Below, one piece after another: positions 20,240-50,815 of a stretch of 64,000 bases of DNA. Both the position numbers and the translations under genes were made by a program. The stretch is taken from positions 1 to 64,000 of the IMG/VR virus record IMGVR_UViG_3300042514_001858; one strand, 5' to 3'. Below the pieces are notes generated by a model. That model was not told where the DNA came from. It searched no databases and worked only from the letters and a program-made list of their open reading frames with translations. Each line of letters opens with the position of its first letter. The first letter of the stretch is position 1. Source of the stretch: a virus.

Positions 20240-20590
20240 TTACATTATGTGTTTTTTAGCCAATTCTTTACCATGTTGGTATCTTTGGATAAATCTATCA
20301 TCTCCTTCAATTATATAATTTATATCAGGGTTATCGATTTTATCCCATTCCTCATCATAACCCAAGTCATCCACTGTCATGGTATGGACATTGATCTTAT
20401 CGCCATCGTTTGCTGTAGCTTCTCGCATTCCAATGATTTTTCCTTCATCGTCTTTGATGAGAATAGAGTATTTTCCATCATAATACCATGGGAGTCGCAT
20501 GAGATAGATAATAGCACCTCCGAAATTGATTTCACAATTTCCTTCAGGATCGAGTTTGTTTAACTCTTCAATGAGTTCTTTAGTTTTCAT
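20240..20590 (-). CDS. hypothetical protein
   Basis: MKTKELIEELNKLDPE start pattern, overlapping rmlB stop. Confidence 0.65.
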   Translation of the reverse strand: MKTKELIEELNKLDPEGNCEINFGGAIIYLMRLPWYYDGKYSILIKDDEGKIIGMREATANDGDKINVHTMTVDDLGYDEEWDKIDNPDINYIIEGDDRFIQRYQHGKELAKKHIM

Positions 20591-22625
20591 ATTTGTTTCT
20601 ATAAAATTCAACAGTCTCTTTGAGAGCTTCATCGTGATTTCTCAATTCAAAAGGAAGATGAGATTCAATGGCATAACGGAAGTCATGCCCCTTTCTATCT
20701 TCGACAAATTTGATATTAGGTATCAATCCCAATATATTACCAATATCTTTGATCATGTTAAGGTTTGTTTTTTCGATTCCCGAACCAATGTTTGTAGAAC
20801 AGTGTGGATTAGATGCAATTTCAAGCAACCATTTGTTGTGATCTTCAACATGAATCCACTCACGGATGTTCTCTCCTGTTCCATAGACAGGAATTGGTTC
20901 GCCTCTTACGATAGAGCGAATCACTGTGGGAATAAATTTCTCATCTGCTTGGTGCTTACCGAAATTGTTACAGCAGTGTGTCGTGGTGATGTCTAATCCA
21001 TAAGTCGTGACGTAAGAATTAGTAATCAGATCAGCAGACGCTTTGGATGCAGCATAAGGACTTCTTGGATTAAATGGTGATTCTTCTGTGAATGCGGGGT
21101 CATTCACGTTCAAATGACCAAATACTTCGTCAGTATTTCCCGATAGATGAGTTATACCATTTCTAACAGTGATAAAATTTTTATTATCTCTCACCTTCAA
21201 ACACCAAACTTTACCATCATATGGTATTTTACTATATTTATGATTAATTCCGATTTTATTTTTTCTGAAATAGATACAATTTGAATCACCCTCAATTTTA
21301 CGCCCATCAATATAAGATATCGATGATCTTTTAGAACATCTTGAAGAAAATCCCAACATATTACCCAAGAATAGCGCATTTTCAGCTAATTTATTAGACG
21401 AAGTATTTAAAACCCAAGGATGATCTTCCCTATATGAGCCATCAGAATCTATCAATCCGTGAAACAATGCTTCAGCTTGTTCAAAATTTAATTCGCTAAT
21501 GATATCATCTGGTATAAATTTTTCTTTGGCTCGTTTACCAAAACATTGGACTGAATCATATAACCATTTATCTGAAGTATATATATAGTCATATGTTGCA
21601 TTTTTTTGAACAGATGTCCACTTTATCCCCAAAATGTTTAAAGCTTTTTCAGTATTTTCCCTTGCTTTGTCTCCAGTTGGAACATGAATAAATACCCGTC
21701 TACCTTTCTGAATCACATATTCTTGATAACCTTCATCACCAATCAATGCTTGATTTTTGGTAAAATGACCTTTAGAATCTCTCACCTTTTTTAAGTAAGA
21801 TTCTCGATTCAATCCCGACAATGATTTACTTTTCTTTATCTGCGTGTCGGAACAACCGTCACCTATGTAGATACCAAACAAATACCATTTCGCCCATTCT
21901 TTTTCATTAAAATTTCCAGATTTTTCTATTTTACCTCTAGGAAAGTATTTAACTGCTTTATGATTTACTAGACTTTCCGCATCTTCAAACAATAATTTTT
22001 GTTCATCGCTATCGGTGTAATACATTCTGTGGTTTGGAGTGACCATCAAATCATTTCTACTAGATTTAAAATGAATCATTTCACCGTTATAATCTTGTAT
22101 AAGAACTTTCTCAACTTCTTTCCATTCCAATACAAATTTATCATTCAACGATAACACTTTATCACCAATTTTTATGTCTTTATAACCCAAAATTCCACGA
22201 TTTGTTAAAGCCTTTGTTTCTTCGTCGTAACAACTGATATTAATAACTTTTGCTTGAGGTTGATAATTTCGCACCCATTCCAATAGAGACACCATACCCA
22301 TCACATTATTTTCAATAAATGGTGAGGGAGAATTGATACTACGATCAACATGAGATTCAGCAGCAAAATGGAAGATGTAATCGAATTTGAAATGTTCGTG
22401 GGTTGCTACTAAATAATTCATGTATCGAATATCACATTTTAAATATGTGTATTTATTTTTATCATTGTTTGGGATTTCTAAAAGCGTTCTGCTCCCGATA
22501 CCCATTTTATCCATATTGATTATCGTGACATTTTCATATTCTTTCGAAACCATTTCAAGGAAATTGCTACCAATAAATCCACATCCACCTGTTACAAGTA
22601 TCGTTCTATTTGTTAAATCAACCAT
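20580..22625 (-). CDS. rmlB: dTDP-glucose 4,6-dehydratase, intein-containing
   Basis: TGGCGFIG, FAAESHVDRSI, S|TDEVFG, PRSPYAASKAS, REWIHVEDH, DRKGHDFRY. Confidence 0.92.
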   Translation of the reverse strand: MVDLTNRTILVTGGCGFIGSNFLEMVSKEYENVTIINMDKMGIGSRTLLEIPNNDKNKYTYLKCDIRYMNYLVATHEHFKFDYIFHFAAESHVDRSINSPSPFIENNVMGMVSLLEWVRNYQPQAKVINISCYDEETKALTNRGILGYKDIKIGDKVLSLNDKFVLEWKEVEKVLIQDYNGEMIHFKSSRNDLMVTPNHRMYYTDSDEQKLLFEDAESLVNHKAVKYFPRGKIEKSGNFNEKEWAKWYLFGIYIGDGCSDTQIKKSKSLSGLNRESYLKKVRDSKGHFTKNQALIGDEGYQEYVIQKGRRVFIHVPTGDKARENTEKALNILGIKWTSVQKNATYDYIYTSDKWLYDSVQCFGKRAKEKFIPDDIISELNFEQAEALFHGLIDSDGSYREDHPWVLNTSSNKLAENALFLGNMLGFSSRCSKRSSISYIDGRKIEGDSNCIYFRKNKIGINHKYSKIPYDGKVWCLKVRDNKNFITVRNGITHLSGNTDEVFGHLNVNDPAFTEESPFNPRSPYAASKASADLITNSYVTTYGLDITTTHCCNNFGKHQADEKFIPTVIRSIVRGEPIPVYGTGENIREWIHVEDHNKWLLEIASNPHCSTNIGSGIEKTNLNMIKDIGNILGLIPNIKFVEDRKGHDFRYAIESHLPFELRNHDEALKETVEFYRNKYEN
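21135..22232 (-). mobile_element. intein with LAGLIDADG endonuclease in RmlB (366 aa)
   Basis: Starts CYDEET, block B VTPNHRM, LFGIYIGDG and FHGLIDSDG, ends HLSGN before Thr; removal restores IS-TDEV. Confidence 0.9.
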
Positions 22626-22676
22626 ATTTCCCTTACTTTAGCGTTGAATTAAACAATGTCAAGGGTAAATATCAAC

Positions 22677-25757: not shown

Positions 25758-25758
25758 A

Positions 25759-36392: not shown

Positions 36393-36394
36393 AA

Positions 36395-37126: not shown

Positions 37127-37158
37127 GCCCGTATTTACTGCGACAAATCATTTGTCAA

Positions 37159-37860
37159 CTAAAAAAGTGGCATATTTTCCGTTGGAGCTTCACCTTTCAT
37201 TTTATCTATGTAATATTCAATATCCATGATGGTAGAATCCATTAAAATTTCACCATCAATTTTCTTTGAAAGATAATATATGATATCTCGGAAGTAATCC
37301 ATATCATAAGAATAAAACAATCCTTTAATCATTTCGTATGGTAAAGATGTTAAGAAGTTGATTTCCATGTTTTCCAGTGCAGCATTTTGTAAAATGATTT
37401 TTTTATCATTCGCGTTTACTAAAAATTGTATCATTTTATTATAGAAATCTGCTGGTAATTTTTCCAACATTTCATCTTTAACTTCATCTGATAATTCCGC
37501 AAAATTAATAATAAAATTGCCGTATTCTATTTTTTTAATAAAATTGGATACCGATAGAATATTCAATTCTTTTATAAATTTACTTGGGATATCGACTAAT
37601 ACTTTTATATTCGAATGTTCAAACCAAGTGGGTTCGGTAACAAATTCATTCAATTCCTTTATGAGATAATCTAATGATATTTTTATATTTTTCTCTTTTA
37701 TATTGAAATTGATGGTATATGAAACATACTTCTCCCAATTCTTTAAGATGTTTATGAACTTTTCATGTGTATTATTACCTTTGAATTTATTCAAATAATC
37801 CACGAAGAAATCCTCATCTTCCTCCAAACATTTTTTTATATCTTTGATTGTTATCCTCAT
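37159..37860 (-). CDS. hypothetical tail/baseplate assembly protein
   Basis: ORF within tail operon; start trimmed to MRITIK overlapping upstream stop. Confidence 0.55.
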   Translation of the reverse strand: MRITIKDIKKCLEEDEDFFVDYLNKFKGNNTHEKFINILKNWEKYVSYTINFNIKEKNIKISLDYLIKELNEFVTEPTWFEHSNIKVLVDIPSKFIKELNILSVSNFIKKIEYGNFIINFAELSDEVKDEMLEKLPADFYNKMIQFLVNANDKKIILQNAALENMEINFLTSLPYEMIKGLFYSYDMDYFRDIIYYLSKKIDGEILMDSTIMDIEYYIDKMKGEAPTENMPLF

Positions 37861-38468
37861 TACACAGCAATCTGTTCGTAATTCTGACAACCAAATGTCA
37901 CGGATTTCACAGGAAATTCTGTATTTTGATAGTCCATCGTAAATCCTTCAACACCAGTGGGAAATGCTTTTCTAAAGATATAACCTTTTCTCAATTCACC
38001 ACCGTTTGTGTATTGTTTCACTGTAATATCAGCTTTGAGGTTTGCACCTGCTTCGATTAATCCTTTTATAGATGTAGCAATAATCCAAGGTCTGAAGTAT
38101 TCATGTTCCAAATCTTTTCTAGTCTCTAAAAAGTTTATAGAAAAGCTACGAGACAAGAAATCTTGTCTACTGTTCAAAACATATCCTGGTAAAAATCCAC
38201 CACTATTTTCACCAATTGAACTGGAACCAAAATTAGCACCTTCGGTTGGAATTGTCACTGATTGTGCTGGTAAAATATTACCATTTTTTGTCATGGAATT
38301 AGGAGTGATCTTAGCTCTCCATTTTTCCTGTGCTAACTGTAAATACTGGTTTATGGAATCATTTGATACTCCATCAATGGATACTGACCACAATACTGGT
38401 ATAGAAAGACAGTATCTAGCGTCCCCTGAAAACGCTTGGAGGAAATCTTCAATCTGTGGGTGAGACAT
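37860..38468 (-). CDS. tail tube-like protein (gp54/gp19 fold)
   Basis: FSINFLET...YIFRKAFPTGV...VTFG tube-fold pattern. Confidence 0.65.
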   Translation of the reverse strand: MSHPQIEDFLQAFSGDARYCLSIPVLWSVSIDGVSNDSINQYLQLAQEKWRAKITPNSMTKNGNILPAQSVTIPTEGANFGSSSIGENSGGFLPGYVLNSRQDFLSRSFSINFLETRKDLEHEYFRPWIIATSIKGLIEAGANLKADITVKQYTNGGELRKGYIFRKAFPTGVEGFTMDYQNTEFPVKSVTFGCQNYEQIAV

Positions 38469-38484
38469 GTAATTACTTAATCAC

Positions 38485-39054
38485 TTAGACCAGTCCACGA
38501 TAGAAATGATACGCGAAAGTCGCAGTGAATGTTTTAATTTCACCAGTTCCATCAGCAATTTCATAAGAAACTTCGCTGATATTTCGAAGAGAAGCACCAA
38601 TCAATTGGATGGTTCTACCAACTTGCATTTCACTACCCGATGTCACATTGGAACCTCTTTGACAAGGGATTTGAAGAACATCCAAAGTAATTACGGATTC
38701 ATATCCTGGCATACAAATATTACCAGTGGTGGTTTCGTTGTCGAATAGGACTCTACTTGCTCTTTCGAGTTTCTCTCTGATATCCAAATTTTGATCAAGA
38801 TAAAATTCTACAGACCAACCTTCAGAACCTGGATAGCTAGATTTTCCAGGAATATTGAAAGTTTGACCAGAATAATTCACCTGTTTGTTTTCAATATCTC
38901 TTCCAGGAAAAGTAGCTGTTTTAGCGTAAACCAAATCAGTCTCACCATTCAAGGAGAGTCCTGTGATGTCGATCTGTTTAACACGGAAAAGGAAGTCGCG
39001 AGCAAATTGTTTTTGCATCGCCTGATTCATAAAATTTTCGATTGTGGTCGCCAT
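38485..39054 (-). CDS. gp19: tail tube protein
   Basis: FARDFLFRV, ATFPGR, WSVEFYLD, FTATFAYHF; directly after sheath. Confidence 0.8.
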   Translation of the reverse strand: MATTIENFMNQAMQKQFARDFLFRVKQIDITGLSLNGETDLVYAKTATFPGRDIENKQVNYSGQTFNIPGKSSYPGSEGWSVEFYLDQNLDIREKLERASRVLFDNETTTGNICMPGYESVITLDVLQIPCQRGSNVTSGSEMQVGRTIQLIGASLRNISEVSYEIADGTGEIKTFTATFAYHFYRGLV

Positions 39055-39059
39055 AATAG

Positions 39060-39065
39060 TATTTA
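39060..39065 (-). promoter_or_regulatory. T4-type late promoter (TAAATA) for tail tube
   Basis: 5 nt to ATG 39054, downstream of the sheath terminator. Confidence 0.7.
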
Positions 39066-39103
39066 ATCATCCGATATAACTTTTTCCAAATAAATCCTTT
39101 TAT

Positions 39104-39141
39104 AAAAAAAAAATCCTGACTGGTATTGCCAATCAGGATTT
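39104..39141 (-). terminator. intrinsic terminator after tail sheath
   Basis: AAATCCTGATTGG-loop-CCAGTCAGGATTT hairpin followed by a poly-U run on the minus strand. Confidence 0.85.
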
Positions 39142-39163
39142 CTTATATTATTTAGTATTAATA

Positions 39164-41599
39164 TTATACCAATTCGTCGAAGTTTGCATCGGATCTGGTC
39201 GCTGTGAAGGTGCAGAGGATGAACTCACCAGTTCTCGTTGGTTTGATTAGAATATCAACTTTCAGTTCATTACTATCAATGACTTGTGGCGTGTTATTTC
39301 TTTCATCGCAGACAATCAAGTAATCATAGCAACCACCGTTTTCCTTCGCAGTTTTGAAGATTGGGTTCAATGTATTGACCAATCTGGTGCGAGTAAATTC
39401 ATTGTTAGGTTCAAACACGAAGAATTGTGCTGTTTTCTTGGTAGGTCTTTCCAGAGCAAGGAACAATCTACGAACATTGATACGATCAAATGCACTTGGT
39501 TTGCGTGACATCGTTTTTTGACCGAACACCACGATTCCTTGAGATGCAGAGAACATAACAGGGTTAATGTTTACCTTGTAAAGTTCATCACGTTGTTTCT
39601 GGTTAGGATTGATAGCGATATCCAAAGCGTTAGTTACAAGACCACGAGTGAATCCAGCAGGAGCAGACCATGGGAATTCAGCAGCATCGCTACGAGCCAT
39701 GATAGCAGCTTGATAACCAGAGAATGGAATCCAAACTTTTTCACCAGTGAAATCGTCATAAGCTTGCACCCAGTTACCATAGGTAGCTGCATACGAGGTG
39801 TTCTCCAATTCAAATTGGTGTCTCATTGCCCAATAAACGTCTAATTGGAAGTTTCTGGTTTTGTCAGTAAGAATCTTACTGTTTCTTCCAGTCACAAGAA
39901 GATGACGGATTGGATCAGCAATAAAGATACAATCACCACGACCACCAGTATTGGATGGAAGGTTGCAGAAATTTTCAAATTGATTGAACACTGCACTGTA
40001 ACTTCCGCGAATATCAGTAGCAACTGCATCATTGAAAATATCTTGTGATGTTCTGAGAGAATCAACTTTCGTTTTCAATGCAGGAGTGTATAGAGTGTCA
40101 TCGTAATAAGTTGTTCCAGCGGCAGATGCCATTGTGAATACCGTTCCAAGACCACCTTCCACGACAACATCGATGTCATAGATTTCATCATTTTTAACAC
40201 TTTCCAAAGCACGATTGATTTTACTTGGAATGCTTCCAAGGGTTTTTTGAGTAATCACTGTTGGGCTGTATGCACCAAGAGGATATAGAGCATCAGCTTT
40301 TACTGCCAATTTGTTAGTAATTTCATCCAATTGTTGTTGAAATGCTCCGAACTTGTTGGTAGCAGATAAACTACCAACAGCAGATAATTTGCTAACTTCA
40401 TTGTAGAAATTATCAGTAAACACTCTGATCTTCTTCTGAGGATTACCTGAAACATCCAACGAAGATTCTCTAAATTTGTTGGAAATGTATGGGTTCACCA
40501 TGATTTCCACATTACGAGCATTGGTATCTTGACTTTCCAAGAAGAAAGGAACAGATGGACCGCCTGTAGGATTGAGTTGAGTGCGGAATGTATCAATCGA
40601 ACCAACAACTCTGTCATCCAACACGAAATCCAATTTGAAGGATTCTGTGGCATAGATACTCTTACGAAGTTTGAATACACCAACGTTCAGAAGGTCATCA
40701 TCTTCTCTACCATCAATGTTGTAATCTGTAAGATTCTCCATGATTTGAGAGATGCTATTCGAAGCTCCTGTTGCAGTAGAAGACAGATTGAATTGCAGAG
40801 TGCCATTTGGAATCTGAGTATATGTGGTATGGTAAGCAGCAGTCAAGCTAGTGGTATATGCACGAGTGACAGCATTGAATGGGGAAGCTGGATCGATGTT
40901 AGTATTATCGCAAATACCGACATAGTAACCTTCAAATTGGCTATTGATAGTCGTTTGTGCTTTATCGAGAACGATAACACCAGCACCACCTAGCGATGCC
41001 AAGGAGTTGAGTCCTGTTCTAGTCGCAGCAGTTGCATTCCAATCAAATAGAGTTCCTTCCATTGCTTGGGCATATTGAGCTTCCGTTAAAGTGAACTGGA
41101 TAGGGCTACCCAAGATGTAAGAAGCAGCAGAAAGATCCAGATTAGTTGTAACCGATGCTGACAAATTGGCGATACTGGATAAAGCTGCTAAAGTTGCAGC
41201 GGAAAGAGTTTCGCTACTCAAATTAGCGACATTCGTGGCAGTAATAGGAACTGTAACAGTGTCGGGTTTAACCGCAATTACTGGATAAACCAGTGCAGTG
41301 TGTTGTGTACCGAATCCGTCACCAGAACCACTACCATAAGGAATGCGGAAAGTGTAGATATTGGCAGGAGAATTCAAAAGTTCTCTTACAGTATAATAAA
41401 AATATCTTTCAGCACTATTCGTTGGTGTGCCGTAAATCGAGTCCAATTCGTCTCTAGTGGTGATTTTGATCACTTCATCCGATGGTCCTTGTGGGGTGAA
41501 ACCAGTCACGAAAACGTTAGTACCAACATTTGTTGGTGCGATGAGACTCAAATCTCTTTCGAAAATTTCTACTCCTGGGCTGTTAATTGTTCGTTGCAT
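39164..41599 (-). CDS. gp18: tail sheath protein
   Basis: SPGVEIFERDLS N-terminus, PWSAPAGFTRG, QRDELYKVNINPV, GQKT..SAFDRINVRRLFL; ATG 41599 is 5 nt after TAAATA. Confidence 0.95.
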   Translation of the reverse strand: MQRTINSPGVEIFERDLSLIAPTNVGTNVFVTGFTPQGPSDEVIKITTRDELDSIYGTPTNSAERYFYYTVRELLNSPANIYTFRIPYGSGSGDGFGTQHTALVYPVIAVKPDTVTVPITATNVANLSSETLSAATLAALSSIANLSASVTTNLDLSAASYILGSPIQFTLTEAQYAQAMEGTLFDWNATAATRTGLNSLASLGGAGVIVLDKAQTTINSQFEGYYVGICDNTNIDPASPFNAVTRAYTTSLTAAYHTTYTQIPNGTLQFNLSSTATGASNSISQIMENLTDYNIDGREDDDLLNVGVFKLRKSIYATESFKLDFVLDDRVVGSIDTFRTQLNPTGGPSVPFFLESQDTNARNVEIMVNPYISNKFRESSLDVSGNPQKKIRVFTDNFYNEVSKLSAVGSLSATNKFGAFQQQLDEITNKLAVKADALYPLGAYSPTVITQKTLGSIPSKINRALESVKNDEIYDIDVVVEGGLGTVFTMASAAGTTYYDDTLYTPALKTKVDSLRTSQDIFNDAVATDIRGSYSAVFNQFENFCNLPSNTGGRGDCIFIADPIRHLLVTGRNSKILTDKTRNFQLDVYWAMRHQFELENTSYAATYGNWVQAYDDFTGEKVWIPFSGYQAAIMARSDAAEFPWSAPAGFTRGLVTNALDIAINPNQKQRDELYKVNINPVMFSASQGIVVFGQKTMSRKPSAFDRINVRRLFLALERPTKKTAQFFVFEPNNEFTRTRLVNTLNPIFKTAKENGGCYDYLIVCDERNNTPQVIDSNELKVDILIKPTRTGEFILCTFTATRSDANFDELV

Positions 41600-41604
41600 A
41601 TAAT

Positions 41605-41610
41605 TATTTA
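41605..41610 (-). promoter_or_regulatory. T4-type late promoter (TAAATA) for tail sheath
   Basis: 5 nt to ATG 41599; resembles T4 gp55 consensus TATAAATA. Confidence 0.7.
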
Positions 41611-41636
41611 GCAAATACCGAACAAAAATTTCCTAT

Positions 41637-42242
41637 TTAAGAAAGAGTCTGATTATATCTATCACATCCTAGCAAATTGATGTGCATTTGTGAGAAAACA
41701 AATGTGAAACCACTTTCTATTTCCATTTCACCCGTCTCATTCTGAGAGAATGCTAATTCGTCGATTGATGTTACAAAGGCTTTCGTATATTTAAATTGGA
41801 TTACTTTATTATCATATTCATCTAAACCATACATCGTTATATCTGTTTGATAATCAGAGAAATTACCATCAACTACAATCCCCTTTGCATTAAATTGACC
41901 TGTTTCTTGATCATGTTGCAGATTCAACCATTGATAAATCGCCCAATAATTATTATAACCAGAATCCACCTTAAATTTAACATTTACAGGAGGATATGGA
42001 TCTTTGGAGTGAGATGACACATAAAGAGTATCACCAGCATATCTAGTCGCAATCGCTTTGATTGTCAGACCTGGAACCATTGTCCCATAGATGCTGAATT
42101 GCACACTATCAGGAATGATCGTGTCATTATTTCTCGTGTAATTTGATTGGATTTTCTTGAGAATTGGGGGCAAATCGAAAACGAGAAGAAATTTGTCTTT
42201 TCTTGATCGATTAAGCCATGATTGCTGGATTTGTCGGGGCAT
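41637..42242 (-). CDS. putative tail tube terminator/completion protein (gp3-like)
   Basis: Tube-like fold motifs (VNVKFKVD..YNNYWAIYQWL; FKYTKAFVTSI); position between terminase and sheath. Confidence 0.55.
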   Translation of the reverse strand: MPRQIQQSWLNRSRKDKFLLVFDLPPILKKIQSNYTRNNDTIIPDSVQFSIYGTMVPGLTIKAIATRYAGDTLYVSSHSKDPYPPVNVKFKVDSGYNNYWAIYQWLNLQHDQETGQFNAKGIVVDGNFSDYQTDITMYGLDEYDNKVIQFKYTKAFVTSIDELAFSQNETGEMEIESGFTFVFSQMHINLLGCDRYNQTLS

Positions 42243-42251
42243 CTATATTAT

Positions 42252-45092
42252 TTAGCCAAAATACTTATTCATAGCATCCCATTGCTCATAAGAAATATTC
42301 CTATCAGGATTTGAATTTATGGAACCTTCAGGTAAGAACCATCCCTGTGCTTCTAAATCTGCCATGTCACTAGCTGCCATGGAACCTTCCCCACCAAAAA
42401 GCATTGGTGCTAAGTTGGAATGTTCAATTTTAGCAACTTCTTCGTTAGTGTAAATAGATGTGGATGATTTGTATTTGAATAGTCCTTGATCAATGGGTTT
42501 GATCACCAATGGTTTGTCACAATCATCATATTCGTCAATTTCAAAATACAATTCTGTGATATCTTTATAAAGAGCCATCAATGCCCACACAAATGCCATA
42601 ACTCTATCATCGTGTTCCCCACTTTTTGCTTTCCAAGAGCCATTGGGGTATCGCACAAAATTTTTAAATTCTTTCAGGGTATCTATATTACGGAATGTTA
42701 CTGATTGTGCTTCATTGACGAAGTATCTCTGGTTCTCCACCGCTTTGTATTTGGTGTTGATATGGGAAATCATACCATTTTGTTTGTTCTTATGAGCTTC
42801 TTTTGCACCCCAAGATACCAGATTTTGATACATGTGAGTGTTTGCCAGAGTATCACAAACACCTGTTCCTTGGTTATTACGCTCAATTAATAATAGAGGA
42901 TTTCCCCAATTTCCACAAACATCTACCACTTCATTGGTAAATTCTGATGGTCCTTTTTTATTTGTCCAATATTCCGCAACTTGTATGATTTGCTTTGGAT
43001 TTGTCACATCCAAAACTTGCAATACAGATGCATCTATACCAACACCTTCAGAAACGTCTCCACCAATCACATAGATTTTTTCAGAATCGTATTCTTCCCA
43101 TATTTTATAAGCACCTTCTTTTAGAACATGGATCGGTTGTTTGCATTCATTCCTAAGTCTATCAAATAGGGATTCATCAATCGATTGTTGACTATTATCA
43201 AGGAAAACATTTCCAAATTCCTGCATGAAAGCTTCATATGATCCCAGAGCTTTAATTTGTTGTAATTTCCAAGCTTCATCTCTTCCAGGTATTTCATCCC
43301 ACTCAATTTTATGGGGAGTGAATCCATTTTCACCTTTTTCAGCTTCAGTATAAAGCTTGTGGAATAGGTTTCCCACTTGATTGGGTGTGGATGCCGCAAT
43401 AATCTTAGATGTTCGGGAACGAGAAATTGTGGGGTAAACAGACTTCCAAAATTCATCAACAACATGTTCCTCCAAGAATGCCAACTCGTCCAAAATGAGC
43501 AGATTCAAAGCAGTTCCACGGATCGCTGATCCCGTTGTAGTTGAGATGCTGATACGACTACCATTATCAAATGCACATCCTGTTTTACCATATTCCTCAA
43601 CTCCTGGCTTTAACCAATTTGGTAACTCCTCATAAGCCAAACGAATTCTTCGAAATATCTCAATCGCAGTGGATTCTTTGTTTGCTACAATAATGGTGTT
43701 TCTGTATGGTTTAAAACATGCTTCGTGGAGAGCAGCAATGGTCATCATTGTAGTATTATGGGTTGGGATAAATGACTTACCACACAGGAACAAATTATCA
43801 CTTGAATCCACAGTAATACATCTAACTGGAACCGATTCAATCGGTCTTATATCTTTAATATAGTGCCATTGATTTCTTTTATTTGATTCTGGTTCTTGAA
43901 TATTTTGTAATACAATTCTATTCTTTTTAAAATTCAATTTTACAACATATTCTCTAGGATAAAATTCAATACTGTGGGAATCCGCACATTGTTTCCCATT
44001 TAAAAATGTTTTTCTTACTTTATAGGTGGTTTTATACCCCAAACTCTCAACCAATTCTTTGAATTGATTTACTAAATTTTCATTTTTATTGGTAAATTTG
44101 GCATGACCACGAGTGTTGATACTCCCATCACTATCCATCAAACCTTTTAACAATTCCAATCTTTGCTCTCTGGATGATTCCAGATAATCTTTGGGTATAT
44201 ACTTATTTCCCAATAAATTTAAATTTCTTAAATCGTTGTTTAACGATGCTCGATAACCGATTTTATCCCATTTACCGTCTATTTTTCCCAGATTGACAGA
44301 ATAAATGTTTCTATTTTCTCTATATACTTCAGAATATTTATATCTTTCATATTGTGATAATATTTCTCTCAATTCATTAATATATTGATACCCAACTGTA
44401 ATTCGAGAAGAATCTGTCGATCCATCTCCCAACCACATTCCCAATACATAAGGTGGGATTGTCAAATCCTTTTCTTCCTTCTCTACTCCATTTATACAAG
44501 ACGGGATTCTGTAAAAAGGTTCTCCAGATTTTGTTTTAAAATTTTCAATTAATTCTTTAGTTGTTTTAATGCTTCCACTTGAAACAACTTTTAAATCCCT
44601 ATCTCTTTTTGATTGGACAAACCAATTATGATCTTCATCAGCTACAATAACTTCACCATTATCAAATTCAACTTCGTAACACGGTCTATCATATCTAATG
44701 TTATGCGCCATGGCAATATTGCAAGGTTTACCATCTCTCCCATAGACCACATCACCATCTTTGAGTTCTCCCATTGTTGTCCAACCATTTGGTGTAGGTA
44801 TTGGAGTATCAAGAGCCAATGCCTTAGAAGCTTGACGGGGGCTAAGAATTACGTTAAATCGATTATCAAAAACGCCTTTTAAAATTCTTTTTTGGAAATC
44901 ATAAAGTTGGATATTAACCTTACCAACATCACTATCAGGATCGATTATATAAAAATAATTAGCTGCAAAATGAATAATATCATTCCTACACTTTTCAATT
45001 TCAACCACCATCTCTGGTGTATATTCAAACGCTGAATTTGCGCTGGGTAAATTAGTATTACCCATATAATTTTGTTTCTTTTTAGCAGCCAT
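42252..45092 (-). CDS. gp17: terminase large subunit, intein-containing
   Basis: YMGNTNL, PRQASK|TT Walker A, LILDELAF Walker B, STPN, FMQEF, GGDVSEGVGID, HDDRVMA. Confidence 0.95.
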   Translation of the reverse strand: MAAKKKQNYMGNTNLPSANSAFEYTPEMVVEIEKCRNDIIHFAANYFYIIDPDSDVGKVNIQLYDFQKRILKGVFDNRFNVILSPRQASKALALDTPIPTPNGWTTMGELKDGDVVYGRDGKPCNIAMAHNIRYDRPCYEVEFDNGEVIVADEDHNWFVQSKRDRDLKVVSSGSIKTTKELIENFKTKSGEPFYRIPSCINGVEKEEKDLTIPPYVLGMWLGDGSTDSSRITVGYQYINELREILSQYERYKYSEVYRENRNIYSVNLGKIDGKWDKIGYRASLNNDLRNLNLLGNKYIPKDYLESSREQRLELLKGLMDSDGSINTRGHAKFTNKNENLVNQFKELVESLGYKTTYKVRKTFLNGKQCADSHSIEFYPREYVVKLNFKKNRIVLQNIQEPESNKRNQWHYIKDIRPIESVPVRCITVDSSDNLFLCGKSFIPTHNTTMMTIAALHEACFKPYRNTIIVANKESTAIEIFRRIRLAYEELPNWLKPGVEEYGKTGCAFDNGSRISISTTTGSAIRGTALNLLILDELAFLEEHVVDEFWKSVYPTISRSRTSKIIAASTPNQVGNLFHKLYTEAEKGENGFTPHKIEWDEIPGRDEAWKLQQIKALGSYEAFMQEFGNVFLDNSQQSIDESLFDRLRNECKQPIHVLKEGAYKIWEEYDSEKIYVIGGDVSEGVGIDASVLQVLDVTNPKQIIQVAEYWTNKKGPSEFTNEVVDVCGNWGNPLLLIERNNQGTGVCDTLANTHMYQNLVSWGAKEAHKNKQNGMISHINTKYKAVENQRYFVNEAQSVTFRNIDTLKEFKNFVRYPNGSWKAKSGEHDDRVMAFVWALMALYKDITELYFEIDEYDDCDKPLVIKPIDQGLFKYKSSTSIYTNEEVAKIEHSNLAPMLFGGEGSMAASDMADLEAQGWFLPEGSINSNPDRNISYEQWDAMNKYFG
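43755..44822 (-). mobile_element. class 3 (Ala1, WCT) intein with LAGLIDADG endonuclease in terminase (356 aa)
   Basis: Starts ALALDT; block B DEDHNW; LGMWLGDG and LKGLMDSDG; block F VRCITV; ends PTHN before Thr. Confidence 0.9.
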
Positions 45093-45101
45093 TGGTATTA
45101 C

Positions 45102-45893
45102 TTAAAAATAATTGCCATAAACACTCCCATCACTACCTCCTGTAGATGGTGGGAATATCTCATTTCTCACAATATCGTCTGAATTTTCCGTATAAATCTT
45201 ATTGGCACTCAAAGCACTAGACAATGCAGGGAACAATACTGAAGATATTTTACCAAAGTAAGAATTATCAGCAATTTGTTGATTGAATGCTTCTCTAGGT
45301 TCATTGGTAACGAAATTGTGTTCACTACGAACAGCTTTTAGTCTCCACACATAATGACCCATTGCTGGATTGAGTTCTGATTGATCCTCATCCATCGCCT
45401 CTGTCACTTCAAATATCTTAGCACTTCTACCATTTGGTCTATCGCAACCAAATGGATAAACGATAATCTTATCCTGTGATTTGGGTTCCAATGGATGATT
45501 CTGAAAATAACTCAAGGATGCAAATTTTGTTTCAAAATCATCAATGTGTAGATACAGTGTTAGTGTATCAGGAGAATCCATACCAGCCAAAGCATAAATC
45601 GGAGAACCGTTCTCCATCTGAATATATGCTTTGATTTCCATTGCACTCAACCAATACATCGTGGTGTGTTCACCGTAAATAGAGTTCATTTGGTCTGGTT
45701 CAAAAGTATTGACCATGTAACCAATCGTCACACCGTAATTATTGATAAGTTCTCCAAATTGAGAATTGAAAATTGCTCTTTCTGCTTGGAAATTGGATGG
45801 ATCAGCAAATCCACCACAATTAGGACGATATACACCAGCGAAAATGTTTTCAGGTGTTAAGCACGATAAAGGTATTGTAGGACATCCAGCCAT
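45102..45893 (-). CDS. putative neck/head-closure protein (gp14-like)
   Basis: ELINNYGV...IYGEH...EPKSQDKII...FEVT...YVWRLKA pattern; synteny. Confidence 0.65.
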   Translation of the reverse strand: MAGCPTIPLSCLTPENIFAGVYRPNCGGFADPSNFQAERAIFNSQFGELINNYGVTIGYMVNTFEPDQMNSIYGEHTTMYWLSAMEIKAYIQMENGSPIYALAGMDSPDTLTLYLHIDDFETKFASLSYFQNHPLEPKSQDKIIVYPFGCDRPNGRSAKIFEVTEAMDEDQSELNPAMGHYVWRLKAVRSEHNFVTNEPREAFNQQIADNSYFGKISSVLFPALSSALSANKIYTENSDDIVRNEIFPPSTGGSDGSVYGNYF

Positions 45894-46252
45894 TATTTTT
45901 TAATTTCTACGATTTTTCCACATTGTTGACCATGAAGATTGGTAAACATTTTTATCATTTGATCGGAATTCTTTCTTTTGATTTCCTTTCCATCTTCAAA
46001 TTCGATGCCACCCAAAGATCCCAACTCTTTTAATAATTCATCACCAATTAAAATTTGTCCATTACTTCTGATCTTTTGATATGGTCCTTTAGTTGAAATA
46101 TTTTTCCTATTAACCATGCGAGCAATATCACTACCACCTTTTTTGTTTCTAGGATTTACTAAACTCTGTTTGATATTTCCGAAAGCATCTTTGTGTCGGT
46201 ATTCCAGTATGACACCGTTGTGTTTTTCAAAAAATTCCAGAAAAGATTCCAT
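45893..46252 (-). CDS. hypothetical late protein
   Basis: 119-aa ORF; TAAATA-N5-ATG. Confidence 0.65.
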   Translation of the reverse strand: MESFLEFFEKHNGVILEYRHKDAFGNIKQSLVNPRNKKGGSDIARMVNRKNISTKGPYQKIRSNGQILIGDELLKELGSLGGIEFEDGKEIKRKNSDQMIKMFTNLHGQQCGKIVEIKK

Positions 46253-46265
46253 GTTATTATTTAAG

Positions 46266-46297
46266 AAAAAAAGGGAGAATCACCACGATTCTCCCTT
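46266..46297 (-). terminator. intrinsic terminator
   Basis: AAGGGAGAATC-loop-GATTCTCCCTT hairpin plus U-run on the minus strand. Confidence 0.85.
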
Positions 46298-46324
46298 CTT
46301 GAGTTTATTTTTTTCTAGAAATTA

Positions 46325-47356
46325 TTAGCGGAAGTAGTCTTCCGATGTTCTCAAATCAGACACTTTGTTTTGTTTACCCATGTTTGGTTGTTTTGCGCCG
46401 TGTAGAGCATGACCGTAATCACCATCGTTACCAACTTTATCAGTAACTCCCGTTACTTTGGTTCCTTGATTTTTAGGTTGTGGGCGACCACCAACTTTGT
46501 TATTCTTGGATTGGAATTTGTGAGAACCATCTTTGGAGTTTTTAGCACCAATTGTCCCATCGTTACCAACTTTATCGGTAGGGAAGGTTTCTTCATCTTC
46601 TTCGTATTCCTCTTCGTCGTCATACATATCACCTTCTTCGTCCATTTCTTCGCCTTCCATATCGAAGTCTAGATCATCACCTTCGTCACCAAGGTCTTCT
46701 TCACCTCCAAGAACGCCCATAAGCACATCATGAAGTTTTTGAGCAGTAGCACGATCAAGAGTAAAGGTAACTTCATCACCCATATCTTCATCACCCATGT
46801 CATCACCCATGTCATCACCGAATTCATCATCAGTAGGAGCATCGGAAAGACCCAATGCAGCGTTTTCAGCGTCTTCGGAGAAATCGCTACCCATAACAGA
46901 TTCAAACAATTTATCAAATGTAGATTTTTTCATCATAAAAGTATTTAGTCTTTCTCTTGCAATTTTTTTAGATTCTTTAACAATATTTTCTTCAGCTTCT
47001 TCTCTTTGCATATTTTTTTTCATATTTTTGAGAGTTTTCTCAAAAGAAGCTTTTTCTGTATCAGATAGATTAGGATTTTTTAATTTTTCTTCAATTTCAG
47101 AAATTCTACTATATTGTTCTTCATTGTCTTCTTCATCACAACCACAATCATCATCATTCAATGCTTTATGGAAACCACCTTTTTCTGTCGGTCCCCCTTT
47201 TTGAATGTCCATTTTATCATTAAATGCATTTTTTGACATTTTAGGAATTTTTTTCGATTTGTTGATGTTTTCCTGAGCATTCTCATTCACAACGGTTTTA
47301 ACACTTTTAAGCATTTCTCCGTAAACATCTCCTAGTGTTGTTTGTTTTTTTCTCAT
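46325..47356 (-). CDS. highly acidic late protein (putative prohead core/scaffold-like)
   Basis: Long D/E/M/G tracts; followed by a strong terminator; internal TAAATA-N5-ATG at 46936. Confidence 0.65.
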   Translation of the reverse strand: MRKKQTTLGDVYGEMLKSVKTVVNENAQENINKSKKIPKMSKNAFNDKMDIQKGGPTEKGGFHKALNDDDCGCDEEDNEEQYSRISEIEEKLKNPNLSDTEKASFEKTLKNMKKNMQREEAEENIVKESKKIARERLNTFMMKKSTFDKLFESVMGSDFSEDAENAALGLSDAPTDDEFGDDMGDDMGDEDMGDEVTFTLDRATAQKLHDVLMGVLGGEEDLGDEGDDLDFDMEGEEMDEEGDMYDDEEEYEEDEETFPTDKVGNDGTIGAKNSKDGSHKFQSKNNKVGGRPQPKNQGTKVTGVTDKVGNDGDYGHALHGAKQPNMGKQNKVSDLRTSEDYFR

Positions 47357-47359
47357 AAA

Positions 47360-47725
47360 TTATGGTTGATATGGTTTATTGGTTACAGTTACAGTTCCAG
47401 CATTAACATCCATATCGAATGAATTAGTTGGATATTTCAATTCAACAGTGGAACCATCAAATTGTGCCAATTCTGAAATTAATTGTGTCAATTTAGCGTG
47501 AAAATGGAAAACTTTGAATACATCAACTCCCAATTCATCGATAATTTCTTGAGGAGTCAAGTTTTCATGATTCCACATGATATCAATACCATCTCTCTGT
47601 GTCTTAACCAAATTATTAAAGCAATTTTTTGATAATTGTTTAATACGTCTGGTTGTATTTTCCAGTTTAATCTTCTTTGGCACTGGCACTCGTAATGGTA
47701 TTGTATTGTCTCCTAATAATGACAT
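47360..47725 (-). CDS. hypothetical late protein
   Basis: 121-aa ORF; TAAATA-N5-ATG. Confidence 0.65.
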   Translation of the reverse strand: MSLLGDNTIPLRVPVPKKIKLENTTRRIKQLSKNCFNNLVKTQRDGIDIMWNHENLTPQEIIDELGVDVFKVFHFHAKLTQLISELAQFDGSTVELKYPTNSFDMDVNAGTVTVTNKPYQP

Positions 47726-47729
47726 GCTA

Positions 47730-48530
47730 TTATTTAGCTAAATTTTTCCAAAATTCGTATCCATCTGTAATTTTACATAAATTTTCCCCTAAAATTTCAA
47801 TTGCTTTAGGTTTTGATGGAATAACTGAGCTTTTAATTTTATGTAAATCAACATAATTATAAACACCATCATCTTCTATTGTTTGATTTATAATATTTTT
47901 AAAATCGTGATTACATCTAGGTATTTCGAGAAAATCCCAAATTACGTTCATAGTTCGTTCTGGTTCATTCGTAAGATAATCGTAATCAACCAATAAAAAT
48001 CTATCACCCAATCCTCTTTGAAAGGCATCTTTTAAAATATTATATGCGACCCCAACTTCACCATTTAAACTAGCCCAATGCATCATTCGACCTTCAGTAT
48101 TTATACATTGCGGCATCGGTCCTTGGGGTGGAAATTTATAAGAACCTTTTCTATAGAGAACTTCAAAAGAAGCCAATACTTCTTTTATATCACGCACAGG
48201 TGCAATAATTTTAACTTTTCTATTGGTTATGGTTTCCAACATCTCAATACCGCCTCCCCAACCTCTACACTTATCTAAAACAAATTCTTTATCAGTATCG
48301 TGATAATTCTGTAAAGTGCTTTTTAAAATTCTTTTTAAATTATCATCTTTTCCAGCATTTTTATCTGCTCTGTGTTCAATGATGTTATTCCAAGAAACTT
48401 TAATATCGTGTAATAATTGAAATAATCCTGATGTGGGGGTGCAAAAAACTTTTGGATTTTGTGCCATGAGATTCATCAATAATGTGCTACCTGATCTAGG
48501 TAATCCCGAAACATAGTGTATGTTTTTCAT
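47730..48530 (-). CDS. PAPS-dependent sulfotransferase family protein
   Basis: 5'-PSB loop SGLPRSGSTLL, 3'-PB VRD...LAS, YDYLTNEP. Confidence 0.85.
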   Translation of the reverse strand: MKNIHYVSGLPRSGSTLLMNLMAQNPKVFCTPTSGLFQLLHDIKVSWNNIIEHRADKNAGKDDNLKRILKSTLQNYHDTDKEFVLDKCRGWGGGIEMLETITNRKVKIIAPVRDIKEVLASFEVLYRKGSYKFPPQGPMPQCINTEGRMMHWASLNGEVGVAYNILKDAFQRGLGDRFLLVDYDYLTNEPERTMNVIWDFLEIPRCNHDFKNIINQTIEDDGVYNYVDLHKIKSSVIPSKPKAIEILGENLCKITDGYEFWKNLAK

Positions 48531-49399
48531 GCTACAATTTTTTCAATATTGAAGATATCTTCAATATTATCATATGGACATTCATGAACCAATCCATTGA
48601 AACTGTAATCATATAAATATGAATTTATATTACCCATGGGAAAAGATTTTTCTGGAATTATGTTATTATGAATGTTATAACCAAATACTTCAGGTTGTGT
48701 TCCGACCCACATCACAGTTGATGGAAGATTCATTGCAGCGGCAGCATGTTGTAAAGATGAATCAATTAAAATTCTTTTCTGTGAAAATTCCATCATTGCA
48801 CATAAAATCTTTTTGTTTAAGAATTGATCAAGTCTAACCACATTCTGCAATGAGGGATGGTGGGGGTAACAGATATGTAAAATTGTGTATTTTTCTTTGA
48901 AATGATTGACTATATCTTGAGCTATTTTCGGATGAATATCTCTCATCCAAGAATATGGGATGTCTTGATTTTGTGGACCACCAAAAGGTTGAAATATCAA
49001 TAATGGTTTATCGGTATTCGGTAAAAATTTGTAAGCCATCTCTTTTTCACGGAAATTAAAATTGATGTTCGGTAACTGCTTATCAAATTCAACGTCAAGC
49101 ATACCACACCAAGATTCAATTACGTGTAATTTTTTGGTAATGTGGTTTGTTGTTTTATATGGATCATGTGCAAAAATATCAATATTTTTATTATAGATAT
49201 AATCTTCGTAAAAATATGGTGTGCTACCCATTAAAAAAGATCTTTTGATATTAAAATCATTTTTAAATAATTCGGGATAAGCAGTAGTGACAATTATATC
49301 AGTATCTGGGTTAGATTTTTTATAAGATCTGATTACTGCGGTTGCAGCTATATTTTTTCCCAAACCACCTTCAATATGGAACAGCGCGTTTTTCAACAT
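48527..49399 (-). CDS. glycosyltransferase (GT9/GT-B-like)
   Basis: GGLGKNIAAT N-terminal motif; IDSSLQHAAAAMNLPSTVMW C-terminal motif. Confidence 0.75.
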   Translation of the reverse strand: MLKNALFHIEGGLGKNIAATAVIRSYKKSNPDTDIIVTTAYPELFKNDFNIKRSFLMGSTPYFYEDYIYNKNIDIFAHDPYKTTNHITKKLHVIESWCGMLDVEFDKQLPNINFNFREKEMAYKFLPNTDKPLLIFQPFGGPQNQDIPYSWMRDIHPKIAQDIVNHFKEKYTILHICYPHHPSLQNVVRLDQFLNKKILCAMMEFSQKRILIDSSLQHAAAAMNLPSTVMWVGTQPEVFGYNIHNNIIPEKSFPMGNINSYLYDYSFNGLVHECPYDNIEDIFNIEKIVA

Positions 49400-49423
49400 G
49401 CGTAGATTTAATTAACTTTGTGA

Positions 49424-50815
49424 TTAAATCAATGCTATTTTTTTAATCACACCATTAATATTTACTACTAGGCATGTACCACCGTTTGTAGTTGATAGTG
49501 GGTATGTTGCCGACCCCAATGCTAATTGATTGTGGCTTGTTGGAATAGCACACGATCCAAGAGCGATGGATGCTGATAAAGATGCGCCAGATCTATATCC
49601 TATAAAAATTGAGTGACAAGCATTAATAGCACCACTACCAGCACCATTACCTAAGAAATTAGAATTACTTGCATTCGTAGCACCATTACCAGCACTATAA
49701 CCTAAGAAATTAGAACTACTTGCATTCGTAGCACCATTACCAGCACTCTGCCCTAAGAAATTGGAGTTATTTGCACACGTAGCACTACTACCAGCACCAT
49801 TACCTAAGAAATTGGAGTTACATGCACTATAAGCACCACAACCAGCATTGTTACCTAAGAAATTGGAAACACATGCATTTGTAGCACCATTACCAGCATT
49901 ATAACCTAAGAAATTAGAGTTACTTGCACAAAAAGCACCAAAACCAGCATTATTACCTAAGAAATTAGAATTACAAGCATACGTAGCACCAGAACCAGCC
50001 TGATACCCTAAGAAATTAGAACTGCAAGCATCTGTAGCACCAGAACCAGCATTATCACCTAAGAAATTAGAACTGGAAGCATTTGCAGCATTATTACCAG
50101 CTTTATAACCTAAGAAATTAGAATTATTTGCACCTGTAGCACTACTACCAGCACTCTGCCCTAAGAAATTAGACTTACTTGCACACGTAGCACCATTACC
50201 AGCACTCTGCCCTAAGAAATTAGAATTACTTGCACAACAAGCACCACTACCAGCACTATTACCTAAGAAATTAGAATAACTTGCACACGTAGCACCATTA
50301 CCAGCACTATAACCTAAGAAATTAGAACTACTTGCACAAAAAGCACCATTACCAGCACTATAACCTAAGAAATTAGAATTACTTGCACACGTAGCACTAC
50401 TACCAGCACAATTACCCAAGAAATTGGAACCACTTGCACCTGTAGCACTCTGACCAGCACTTTTGCCTACAAAAAAGCTACCTGCGCGTGTTGCGCTAAT
50501 AGGTAAACTACCTATGTTGATCGCACTTGTAGCAAAAGTTTGAGTCGTTGAGAAATTATTATCAACGTTCACTTTCGCGTAATTAGCAGAATTAGCACGG
50601 AAAGTAGTCGCAGTGCTTTGCCAGTTGGATGATAAGCTACGAACTGTGGTTGCAGAACTTTGCCAGTCAGAGGATAAGCTACGAACTGTGGTATCCGTAT
50701 AATTTTTGATAGAGCTTAAAGGAGTATTGTATGTTACCCCCTTTTGATTCAAAATAAAAGTCTCACCACCAGATAGGGGTGTTGTTGCTGGATCATATTG
50801 GGAAATCTTAGGCAT
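49424..50815 (-). CDS. fibre/adhesin-like repeat protein
   Basis: 16 copies of 17-aa SNFLGxxAGxxAxxAxx; N-terminal PKISQ..PLSGGE fibre-type motif; TAAATA-N5-ATG. Confidence 0.75.
   Translation of the reverse strand: MPKISQYDPATTPLSGGETFILNQKGVTYNTPLSSIKNYTDTTVRSLSSDWQSSATTVRSLSSNWQSTATTFRANSANYAKVNVDNNFSTTQTFATSAINIGSLPISATRAGSFFVGKSAGQSATGASGSNFLGNCAGSSATCASNSNFLGYSAGNGAFCASSSNFLGYSAGNGATCASYSNFLGNSAGSGACCASNSNFLGQSAGNGATCASKSNFLGQSAGSSATGANNSNFLGYKAGNNAANASSSNFLGDNAGSGATDACSSNFLGYQAGSGATYACNSNFLGNNAGFGAFCASNSNFLGYNAGNGATNACVSNFLGNNAGCGAYSACNSNFLGNGAGSSATCANNSNFLGQSAGNGATNASSSNFLGYSAGNGATNASNSNFLGNGAGSGAINACHSIFIGYRSGASLSASIALGSCAIPTSHNQLALGSATYPLSTTNGGTCLVVNINGVIKKIALI
49614..50428 (-). 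repeat. 51-bp tandem coding repeat (16 units)
   Basis: Recurrent cctaagaaatt...accagc at 51-nt period. Confidence 0.95.

Follow-up and report, generated by a model that had tools for sequence, protein, structure and literature searches.

The window analysed here is a 64,000-nucleotide stretch of viral DNA, the first 64 kb of the 154,167-bp IMG/VR virus record IMGVR_UViG_3300042514_001858 (34% G+C). It contains a module in which the gene of a putative repeat fibre is followed by a glycosyltransferase (GT) gene and a sulfotransferase (ST) gene, and it also encodes a nucleoside-diphosphate (NDP)-L-rhamnose pathway. Judged from sequence and by analogy with bacterial adhesin systems, there is in our view an even chance that the module carries out late cytoplasmic glycosylation of the phage's own fibre, followed by sulfation. 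We regard fibre glycosylation as the best reading because the GT appears phage-specific and is tied to one kind of fibre, is probably co-transcribed with it late in infection, and has a sugar-nucleotide pathway alongside. No description of this fibre/GT/ST/rhamnose module was found in the literature. The genes named in a first-pass annotation of the same DNA were all found, at the coordinates given there. Window coordinates are used throughout, save those marked "genome", which refer to the 154-kb record; the CheckV completeness of that record is ~75%, and absences within it are not absolute. The core of the module is as follows.

50813–50826, minus strand: late-promoter-like box TAAATA-N5-ATG, fused to the fibre start codon, found by motif enrichment.
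49424–50815, minus strand: repeat fibre, 463 aa, with an anchor-like N-terminal region, 17 repeats of 17 residues and a YadA-like C-terminal cap.
48527–49399, minus strand: GT9-fold glycosyltransferase, 290 aa, starting 24 bp after the fibre gene, assigned by AlphaFold (AF2) model and Foldseek.
47730–48530, minus strand: sulfotransferase of the 3′-phosphoadenosine 5′-phosphosulfate (PAPS) type, 266 aa, matching PF13469 with 50 bits against a cut-off of 27.

The virus is a distant, uncultured T4-like myophage from a lake, and a T4-like structural module surrounds the fibre, GT and ST genes. The structural genes identified in the window encode the gp25 and gp6 baseplate wedge proteins, the sheath, the tube, a T4-type large terminase and one gp53-like baseplate protein; the gp44 clamp-loader gene was also identified. 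The gp25 and gp6 genes lie divergently on one flank of the module, the large terminase, tube and sheath genes on the other. Among cultured phages, even the best relatives of the terminase reach no more than 30–35% identity.

The fold of the GT was predicted from an 18-sequence alignment (predicted local distance difference test, pLDDT, 81.6). In a Foldseek search with this model, ranks 1–21 were all GT9 entries except for an NDH-PSI subunit at rank 7. The matches included a Veillonella GT9 (3tov, 5.8e-11), WaaF (1psw), TibC (4rb4 and 4rap), WaaC, 6dfe, 2h1h and 2gt1; the E-values of the GT9 matches ranged from 5.8e-11 to 7e-7, and their query TM-scores (TMq) from 0.54 to 0.65. As modelled, the product of the GT gene is of GT9 (GT-B) fold, which bears out the earlier "GT9-like" call. 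The fold search alone was informative, as sequence and profile searches against the PDB gave nothing useful. No Pfam family was matched at E ≤ 0.01, so the window protein does not reach the PF01075 threshold; one fused member of the GT family (P0238) does pass PF01075, with 22.9 bits against a cut-off of 22. In other members, the fusion partner is an FkbM methyltransferase or a GT25 domain. All 18 sequences, which are 52–69% identical, share the motifs HIEGGxGK and DSSLQHAAAA without change, and this argues for a working nucleotide-sugar enzyme. The C-terminal one resembles what we take to be the GT9 signature around DSxxxHxAAA. The family is large, with 2058 word-search matches, 718 representative clusters at 50% identity and 400 IMG/VR loci, and its homologues were named "ADP-heptose:LPS heptosyltransferase" by JGI (LPS, lipopolysaccharide). 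The co-occurring NDP-rhamnose pathway suggests a donor other than ADP-heptose. A complex prediction for fibre residues 215–463 with the GT alignment scored 0.00, which is no verdict for or against binding.

The ST passed PF13469 and contains both PAPS-binding motifs, so its earlier description as a PAPS-type sulfotransferase holds. The 5′-phosphosulfate-binding (5′-PSB)-like motif is PRSGSTLL at residues 11–18, and the 3′-phosphate-binding (3′-PB)-like motif RDxxxxxxS lies within VRDIKEVLAS at residues 112–121. P11, R12, G14, S15, T16, R113 and S121 are invariant in the family, as are T31, T33, S34 and G35. By single sequence, by family profile and by predicted fold, the closest solved relatives of the ST are protein-tyrosine sulfotransferases. 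The family profile matched TPST1 in the PDB with 7.5e-8, and the CurM ST was also matched. With the model of the ST (pLDDT 83.5), Foldseek ranks 1–13 were all tyrosylprotein sulfotransferases (~2e-9), ahead of the CurM ST and the heparan 3-O-sulfotransferases. The 5′-PSB loop PRSG(T/S)TL is common to the phage ST and TPST1/2 (5wrj, 3ap1-3); the identity to these enzymes is 16–20%, with TM-scores of 0.54–0.60. In the pairwise alignment, the TPST1 segment CGEET, which presumably contains the catalytic Glu (Glu99 of TPST2), stands opposite an invariant C-T-P-T-S of the phage family. Since the residue aligned with this presumed catalytic Glu is an invariant Thr, the phage ST does not appear to be a TPST family member. 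The first-pass annotation had spoken of a sulfated sugar; as the ST is more like protein-tyrosine than carbohydrate sulfotransferases, a sugar is one of several possible targets. The 154-kb record gave only sub-threshold P-loop matches to the adenosine 5′-phosphosulfate (APS) kinase family PF01583, thus PAPS would have to come from the host.

The fibre contains 17 tandem, exactly periodic repeats of 17 residues (SNFLGxxAGxGATxASx), most of them with one Cys. It is composed of 17% Ser, 15% Ala, 14% Gly, 14% Asn and 3.7% Cys; among its 463 residues, only six Asp and one Glu are acidic. The sixth position of the repeat is variable, and in seven of the 17 copies it is Tyr. The nearest Atlas clusters of the fibre are all viral and some carry YadA_head, which we treat as a lead only. 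In tblastn searches against cultured phages, the window fibre found only gp257 of Sphingomonas phage PAU and one "virion structural protein" (weak), and the fibre of a marine relative found nothing.

Gene order in relatives points to the fibre as the acceptor. Locus annotation covered the best 80 of the 400 IMG/VR loci, and 44 distinct IMG/VR loci with a GT identity of 51–100% made up the synteny set. In these 44 loci, the readable same-strand gene just upstream of the GT nearly always encodes a repeat protein and ends 3–52 bp before the GT. The Ser/Gly/Ala/Asn/Thr fraction of the upstream protein is 0.43–0.72 (background mean 0.31, 95th percentile 0.42), and it is usually Cys-rich as well. 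The fibre-then-GT order persists where the fibres no longer match by BLAST; there is one clear exception (L007), and ten loci were left unscored, five of them through a reverse-strand ST between fibre and GT. The ST is present in a subset of the 44 loci. Outside this set, the cultured SAR11 podophage HTVC112P encodes a "putative tail fiber" (gp48) immediately followed by a "putative glycosyl transferase" (gp49); gp49 is 29% identical to the GT, and the gp48 fibre also has YadA-like repeats. Conservation of the fibre-GT order, including in an unrelated podophage, favours the fibre as acceptor. The first-pass annotation had named conservation of the fibre-GT-ST order in relatives as a check, and its outcome was positive, for the fibre-GT pair in most scored loci and in HTVC112P, for the ST in a subset. 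In a pelagiphage preprint, the HTVC111P-type gene is labelled merely "GTF". N-X-S/T sequons were considered as an acceptor signal and dropped; they are frequent in the HTVC112P fibre (as NTT) but not in the window fibre.

Other tailoring genes are seen beside GT homologues. In S-SSM7 (L095), the gene after the GT homologue carries the annotation carbamoyltransferase, and a Nol gene lies close by. In two single-virus uncultured marine genomes (L176 and L177), the product of the gene after the GT starts carbamoyltransferase-like, as judged by eye. Carbamoyltransferase and sulfotransferase together resemble the Nod-factor set of tailoring enzymes. In one of these genomes, Marine virus AG-345-O18 (L176, 1024–4169), the ORFs upstream of the GT homologue contain ~10% cysteine.

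The promoter-like sequences of the window are consistent with late transcription of the fibre operon. The box TAAATA-N5-ATG occurs in 15 copies in the window, compared to 2.45 expected, and falls on the start codons of sheath, baseplate, fibre and other virion genes. The GT start carries a one-mismatch version (TAAATC-N5-ATG); the ST has no late box, and the next gene after it has its own copy. The stop codon of the GT and the start codon of the ST overlap as ATGA, just as the first-pass annotation had described. No terminator-like site was found on the minus strand across fibre, GT and ST. The accessory-block promoter motif AAAAACTA(G/A) has no copy at any gene of the module.

The sugar-nucleotide genes of the window are the following.

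35264–36184, minus strand: short-chain dehydrogenase/reductase (SDR) of NRS/ER (UGER) type, 306 aa, matching RmlD_sub_bind with 86 bits, upstream of rmlA.
34531–35286, minus strand: rmlA, RmlA-type glucose-1-phosphate nucleotidylyltransferase, 251 aa, matching NTP_transferase with 188 bits and TIGR01207 with 249 bits.
20580–22625, minus strand: rmlB, RmlB-type NDP-glucose 4,6-dehydratase with an intein, 681 aa, matching Pfam GDP_Man_Dehyd/Epimerase and TIGR01181.
21135–22232, minus strand: intein in RmlB, 366 aa, with a LAGLIDADG homing endonuclease; first residue Cys1, last residue Asn, +1 residue Thr.

Neither RmlA (249 bits against an equivalog cut-off of 360.65 for TIGR01207) nor RmlB (294.8 bits against 365.1 for TIGR01181, the score being split by the intein) reached the equivalog level; the two families were nevertheless the top-scoring ones, and the Pfam domains pass. 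In RmlB, the Pfam and TIGR01181 matches fall in two stretches with an Intein_splicing/LAGLIDADG insert between them. The intein site lies between the Ser and the Thr of the dehydratase active-site motif STDEV. The exteins join to ~315 aa, with the S-TDEVFG and YAASK motifs intact across the junction, and the RmlB proteins of relatives (321–333 aa), which have no insert, align straight across the site. The penultimate residue of the intein is Gly, where His is usual, and the +1 Thr is invariant.

The SDR gene overlaps the start of rmlA by 23 nt and begins with the ATG at 36184, as annotated in the first pass. Its product matched the RmlD model TIGR01214 weakly (76.7 bits, cut-off 224). When a profile of nine phage homologues was searched against the PDB, the Arabidopsis 3,5-epimerase/4-reductase 4qqr was matched with 3.1e-38 (134.8 bits) and the Mimivirus UDP-L-rhamnose synthase L780 (7jid) with 3.5e-30 (108.4 bits), compared to ~1e-11 (best 46.8 bits) for bacterial RmlD. 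A Cys (in SxGC), a Lys (in TKI) and YSKSK (the YxxxK of SDRs) are invariant in the nine phage sequences and align with the corresponding residues of 7jid and 4qqr; in L780 the key catalytic residues are Cys108 and Lys175 (PMC9614988). By these profile comparisons, the SDR is a bifunctional NDP-4-keto-6-deoxyglucose 3,5-epimerase/4-reductase of the NRS/ER (UGER) type. Separate RmlC and RmlD enzymes are usual in bacteria, and the bifunctional type is found in plants, fungi and giant viruses (PMC9741107). No match to RmlC (PF00908) was found in the 154-kb record (75% complete), with control genomes positive, and this absence is explained by the bifunctional nature of the SDR. By homology, the three enzymes RmlA, RmlB and NRS/ER thus cover the whole route from glucose-1-phosphate to NDP-L-rhamnose, predicted to be dTDP- or UDP-linked. 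The NDP-rhamnose pathway proposed in the first pass therefore holds in a sharper form, without RmlC. As in plant NRS/ER (UER1) and Mimivirus L780, one SDR domain would perform both 3,5-epimerization and 4-reduction. Different from these enzymes, the phage SDR is paired with a bacterial-type RmlA, so its nucleotide may be dTDP, and its closest cellular relatives found are not eukaryotic but belong to Verrucomicrobiota/Planctomycetota.

The rhamnose genes keep company with the fibre operon in relatives. The NRS/ER gene lies <10 kb from the GT in 14 of the 17 loci that have ≥7 kb of upstream flank. In the nearest relatives, whose ST is 78% identical, the rhamnose pair directly adjoins the fibre operon in divergent orientation: gp44, rmlA and NRS/ER point one way, and fibre, GT, ST, four small genes, terminase and tube follow in the opposite direction. 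The four genes between ST and terminase have no Pfam or PHROG match. As the fibre gene lies ahead of neck-like genes, its product may be a neck or whisker fibre. In the window, the structural block 36395–50815, from fibre to baseplate gene, is inverted compared to two of these relatives (L010 and L013), and for this reason NRS/ER-rmlA and the fibre operon are ~12 kb apart. The stop codon of rmlA overlaps the start of the gp44 clamp-loader gene (ATGA), so that NRS/ER, rmlA and gp44 are chained head to tail; rmlB is preceded by an early-type, sigma-70-like TTGACA-N16-TAAAGT and a Shine-Dalgarno-like AAGGG. Late expression, as first proposed for the fibre-GT-ST operon, has its only support in the promoter-like box on the fibre ATG, and it does not extend to the rml genes. 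This pattern, as read from promoter-like sequences, fits precursor synthesis starting before late assembly, but other uses of the sugar would fit it just as well.

In some marine relatives (L092, 2974–5316; L093, 574–4836), rmlA is replaced by a small protein with a cytidylyltransferase-like N-terminus, adjoined by a GMP-reductase-like gene. Judging by the N-terminal sequence alone, the activated sugar of these relatives may differ.

Relatives of the NRS/ER gene were also searched in bacteria, using one genome per prokaryote species and seeding with two short motifs, a procedure that is biased to close relatives. The 80 best relatives are 29–37% identical to the phage enzyme, and ~75 of them belong to Verrucomicrobiota or Planctomycetota according to the record titles (L096–L175). 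rmlB is found near 53 of the 80 genes and rmlA near 49. With this distribution, the RmlC-less NRS/ER-rmlB-rmlA trio is a trait of Planctomycetes-Verrucomicrobia-Chlamydiae (PVC) bacteria too, and it is an independent pointer to Verrucomicrobiota/Planctomycetota as source of the genes and as possible hosts. The first-pass annotation had guessed a Verrucomicrobia/Planctomycetes host; the distribution fits this guess and lends it indirect support, which is not proof of the host. Neither GT nor ST was found near any of the 80 bacterial NRS/ER loci. The GT family had no match in 301 sampled Verrucomicrobiota genomes, under conditions where the own-genome positive control gave 2.7e-155, and none in five PVC genomes holding the rhamnose trio. 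Unlike the sugar-nucleotide genes, the GT/ST pair thus appears to be phage-specific.

In the fibre reading, fibre, GT and ST would be transcribed together from the late promoter late in infection, as the box and the gene overlaps suggest. In the cytoplasm, the GT would then glycosylate the Ser/Thr (perhaps Cys or Asn) side chains that the 17-residue beta-roll repeats expose; for this step, synteny and analogy are our guides, and the model is provided by the GT9-related TibC and AAH, which modify repeat adhesins encoded beside them. The donor sugar is likely rhamnose. The ST would subsequently add sulfate from host PAPS, either to the sugar or directly to a fibre side chain, and the outcome would be an anionic glycan-coated fibre that could tune adsorption or shield the virion. 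The first-pass idea that such a coat mimics the food of the host and acts as a lure is speculative. Fibre decoration with a sulfated deoxy-sugar had already been proposed in the first pass; the enzymology and the conserved gene order of that proposal stand, and the presence of sugar or sulfate on a virion protein is what we infer from them.

The bacterial autotransporter heptosyltransferases (BAHT), TibC with TibA and AAH with AIDA-I, offer the nearest precedent. In them a GT9-type GT-B enzyme (4rb4, 4rap) is encoded beside a Ser/Thr-rich repeat beta-solenoid adhesin, which is glycosylated in the cytoplasm before assembly. The phage GT likewise adjoins a repeat fibre, its presumed substrate, and TibC is among its top fold matches. 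BAHT enzymes feature an iron-binding insertion and form a dodecameric ring, whereas the phage GT is known from sequence and model. In addition, the phage donor is probably not ADP-heptose, since the NDP-rhamnose pathway travels with the GT; the acceptor candidate is a fibre with 17-residue YadA-like repeats, and a sulfotransferase is coupled to the phage GT. WaaC, WaaF and other CAZy GT9 enzymes (2h1h, 6dfe, 1psw, 3tov) are the best structural matches. Different from these, the phage GT lies below the Pfam GT9 threshold, its family appears phage-restricted in the samples searched, and it is found beside a fibre gene instead of core-LPS genes.

Several observations weigh against the fibre reading. 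The GT9 fold ranking does not separate TibC from WaaC/WaaF, and proteins are not the substrate of most characterized GT9 enzymes, which modify the LPS inner core instead. With 290 aa, the phage GT is much shorter than the matched TibC chains (383–390 residues), and its family includes fusions to GT25 "LPS" domains. The fibre-GT pair is retained in the 32-kb genome of HTVC112P, so the donor may be a sugar other than rhamnose in some phages. The precursor genes NRS/ER, rmlA and rmlB are not late genes, owing to the clamp-loader chaining and the sigma-70-like box. The fibre has no Pfam or PHROG match and is a putative virion component. Finally, a further glycan island of 17 genes (genome 102116–114949, L178), outside the window, could serve a host-directed programme. 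Eight of its genes have GT-family matches: GT7C-like, GT2 (three), GT11 (two), GT17 and GT25. The others include a second PF13469 sulfotransferase, an AAA_28 NTPase, two methyltransferases, DUF3431, a DNA methylase, and two SDRs, namely a Polysacc_synt_2 dehydratase and an RmlD-like reductase. No late boxes were found in the island, and no flippase, polymerase or initiating-transferase families among the 17 genes scanned.

The main rival, and a serious one, is that the module remodels the host envelope, which we consider rather unlikely. The GT would add sugar, and the ST sulfate, to the LPS core or another surface glycan of the host, masking or destroying the receptor and thereby saving progeny from loss on debris or excluding superinfection; the GT would lie beside the fibre because a receptor-binding protein and a receptor-masking enzyme co-evolve. 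The top fold matches include WaaC and WaaF, the best-known GT9 enzymes and both LPS heptosyltransferases, and the JGI name of the homologues and the GT25 LPS-type fusions point the same way, as do the large island, which resembles an LPS or capsular polysaccharide (CPS) locus, the co-orientation of the rml genes with replication genes, and the sigma-70-like box ahead of rmlB. However, the fibre operon carries a late box, and late expression fits superinfection exclusion poorly. The GT family was found neither in the 301 Verrucomicrobiota genomes nor beside the 80 bacterial rhamnose loci, and the scanned island genes include no flippase, polymerase or initiating phosphoglycosyltransferase. Across very different phages, moreover, the GT adjoins one kind of Ser/Thr/Asn/Cys-rich repeat fibre. 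The likeness of the ST to protein-tyrosine sulfotransferases, by sequence, profile (7.5e-8) and fold (~2e-9), raises another explanation, that the ST O-sulfates Tyr, Ser or Thr of the fibre directly and the GT adds a separate sugar. The Tyr at the sixth position of seven repeats would suit it, but sulfated tyrosines usually have acidic neighbours, which the fibre almost lacks, the presumed catalytic base of the TPSTs is not conserved (CGEET versus C-T-P-T-S), identities and TM-scores to the TPSTs are low, and PF13469 also includes carbohydrate sulfotransferases; we consider it improbable.

A non-catalytic role, in which the GT9-fold protein is an assembly factor or chaperone of the fibre that kept the fold and lost the transferase function, is highly improbable. 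Tail-fibre assembly proteins are commonly encoded just downstream of tail-fibre genes, which is the position of the GT gene, and the GT has no Pfam match of its own. Against this stand the invariance of the nucleotide-sugar-site-like DSSLQHAAAA and the N-terminal EGGxGK, and the fact that the GT travels with sugar-nucleotide genes and tailoring enzymes, the sulfotransferase here and the carbamoyltransferase in S-SSM7. We give the least credence, close to none, to hypermodification of DNA, with the sugar on a modified base as in the glucosyl-hydroxymethylcytosine of T4. T4-like phages do glycosylate their DNA by GT-B-fold enzymes, and a replication gene is part of the rml chain. However, the thymidylate-synthase/hydroxymethylase family was not found in the 75%-complete 154-kb record, the GT, a GT9-type enzyme, goes with a fibre gene and is apparently expressed late, and no role in DNA modification is known for a sulfotransferase.

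Returning to the fibre as acceptor, we tentatively propose a wider picture, which we hold to be somewhat doubtful: a widespread clade of aquatic T4-like phages and some SAR11 podophages may covalently decorate a dedicated YadA-like fibre by a phage-only, compact GT9-type GT, with sulfate added in the freshwater members by a TPST-like ST and the sugar supplied by a rhamnose pathway of plant/giant-virus/PVC type. Virion self-glycosylation is, to our knowledge, established for giant viruses and a few mycobacteriophages (glycosylation of mycobacteriophage capsids and tails was reportedly described by Freeman et al. in 2023), not for T4-like phages, and sulfation for no phage. We also know of no demonstration that a virion glycan is sulfated in giant-virus, chlorovirus or mycobacteriophage systems. 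If the proposal is true, a bacteriophage particle would for the first time be found to carry a sulfated protein or glycoprotein. In Mimivirus fibrils and chlorovirus capsids, too, a virus-borne sugar-nucleotide pathway and transferases decorate a surface structure, and sulfate-metabolism genes occur in some moumouvirus clusters (PMC9614988). Mimivirus uses the same UGER-type rhamnose synthase (L780) as the phage. Mycobacteriophage virion glycosylation is alluded to in PMC11256854. Different from the giant-virus and mycobacteriophage systems, the module described here belongs to a T4-like myophage of a bacterium, with a single dedicated fibre as the proposed acceptor and a GT9-type transferase.

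If a GT dedicated to the fibre is indeed retained next to rapidly evolving fibres across hundreds of aquatic phage contigs, the host-recognition surfaces of abundant environmental phages would be chemically unlike what is predicted from genes. Adsorption and host range would be affected, as would the tendency to stick to polysaccharide particles and the way in which defence or grazing systems recognize the phages. The 290-aa GT9-fold transferase, the TPST-like sulfotransferase and the RmlC-less rhamnose pathway are compact enzymes of possible practical use.

Two further features of the window adjoin the module.

42252–45092, minus strand: large terminase with an intein containing a LAGLIDADG endonuclease, roughly at residues 126–446.
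36168–36392, minus strand: small acidic ORF, 74 aa, between the baseplate gene and the NRS/ER gene and overlapping the latter; conserved in the relative L010.

In the relatives L013 and L076, the terminase is instead split around an inserted ORF. The stretch from 62918 to the end of the window at 64000, continued to genome 66038 (L179), encodes two fibre proteins whose N-terminal domains are Mtd_N (major tropism determinant). They are followed by a 215-aa putative mucin-like ORF (genome 64540–65187), which consists almost entirely of Pro/Thr/Ser repeats. A GT2 gene (genome 65196–66038) starts 8 bp after this ORF, and the two may be a second substrate-plus-transferase pair.

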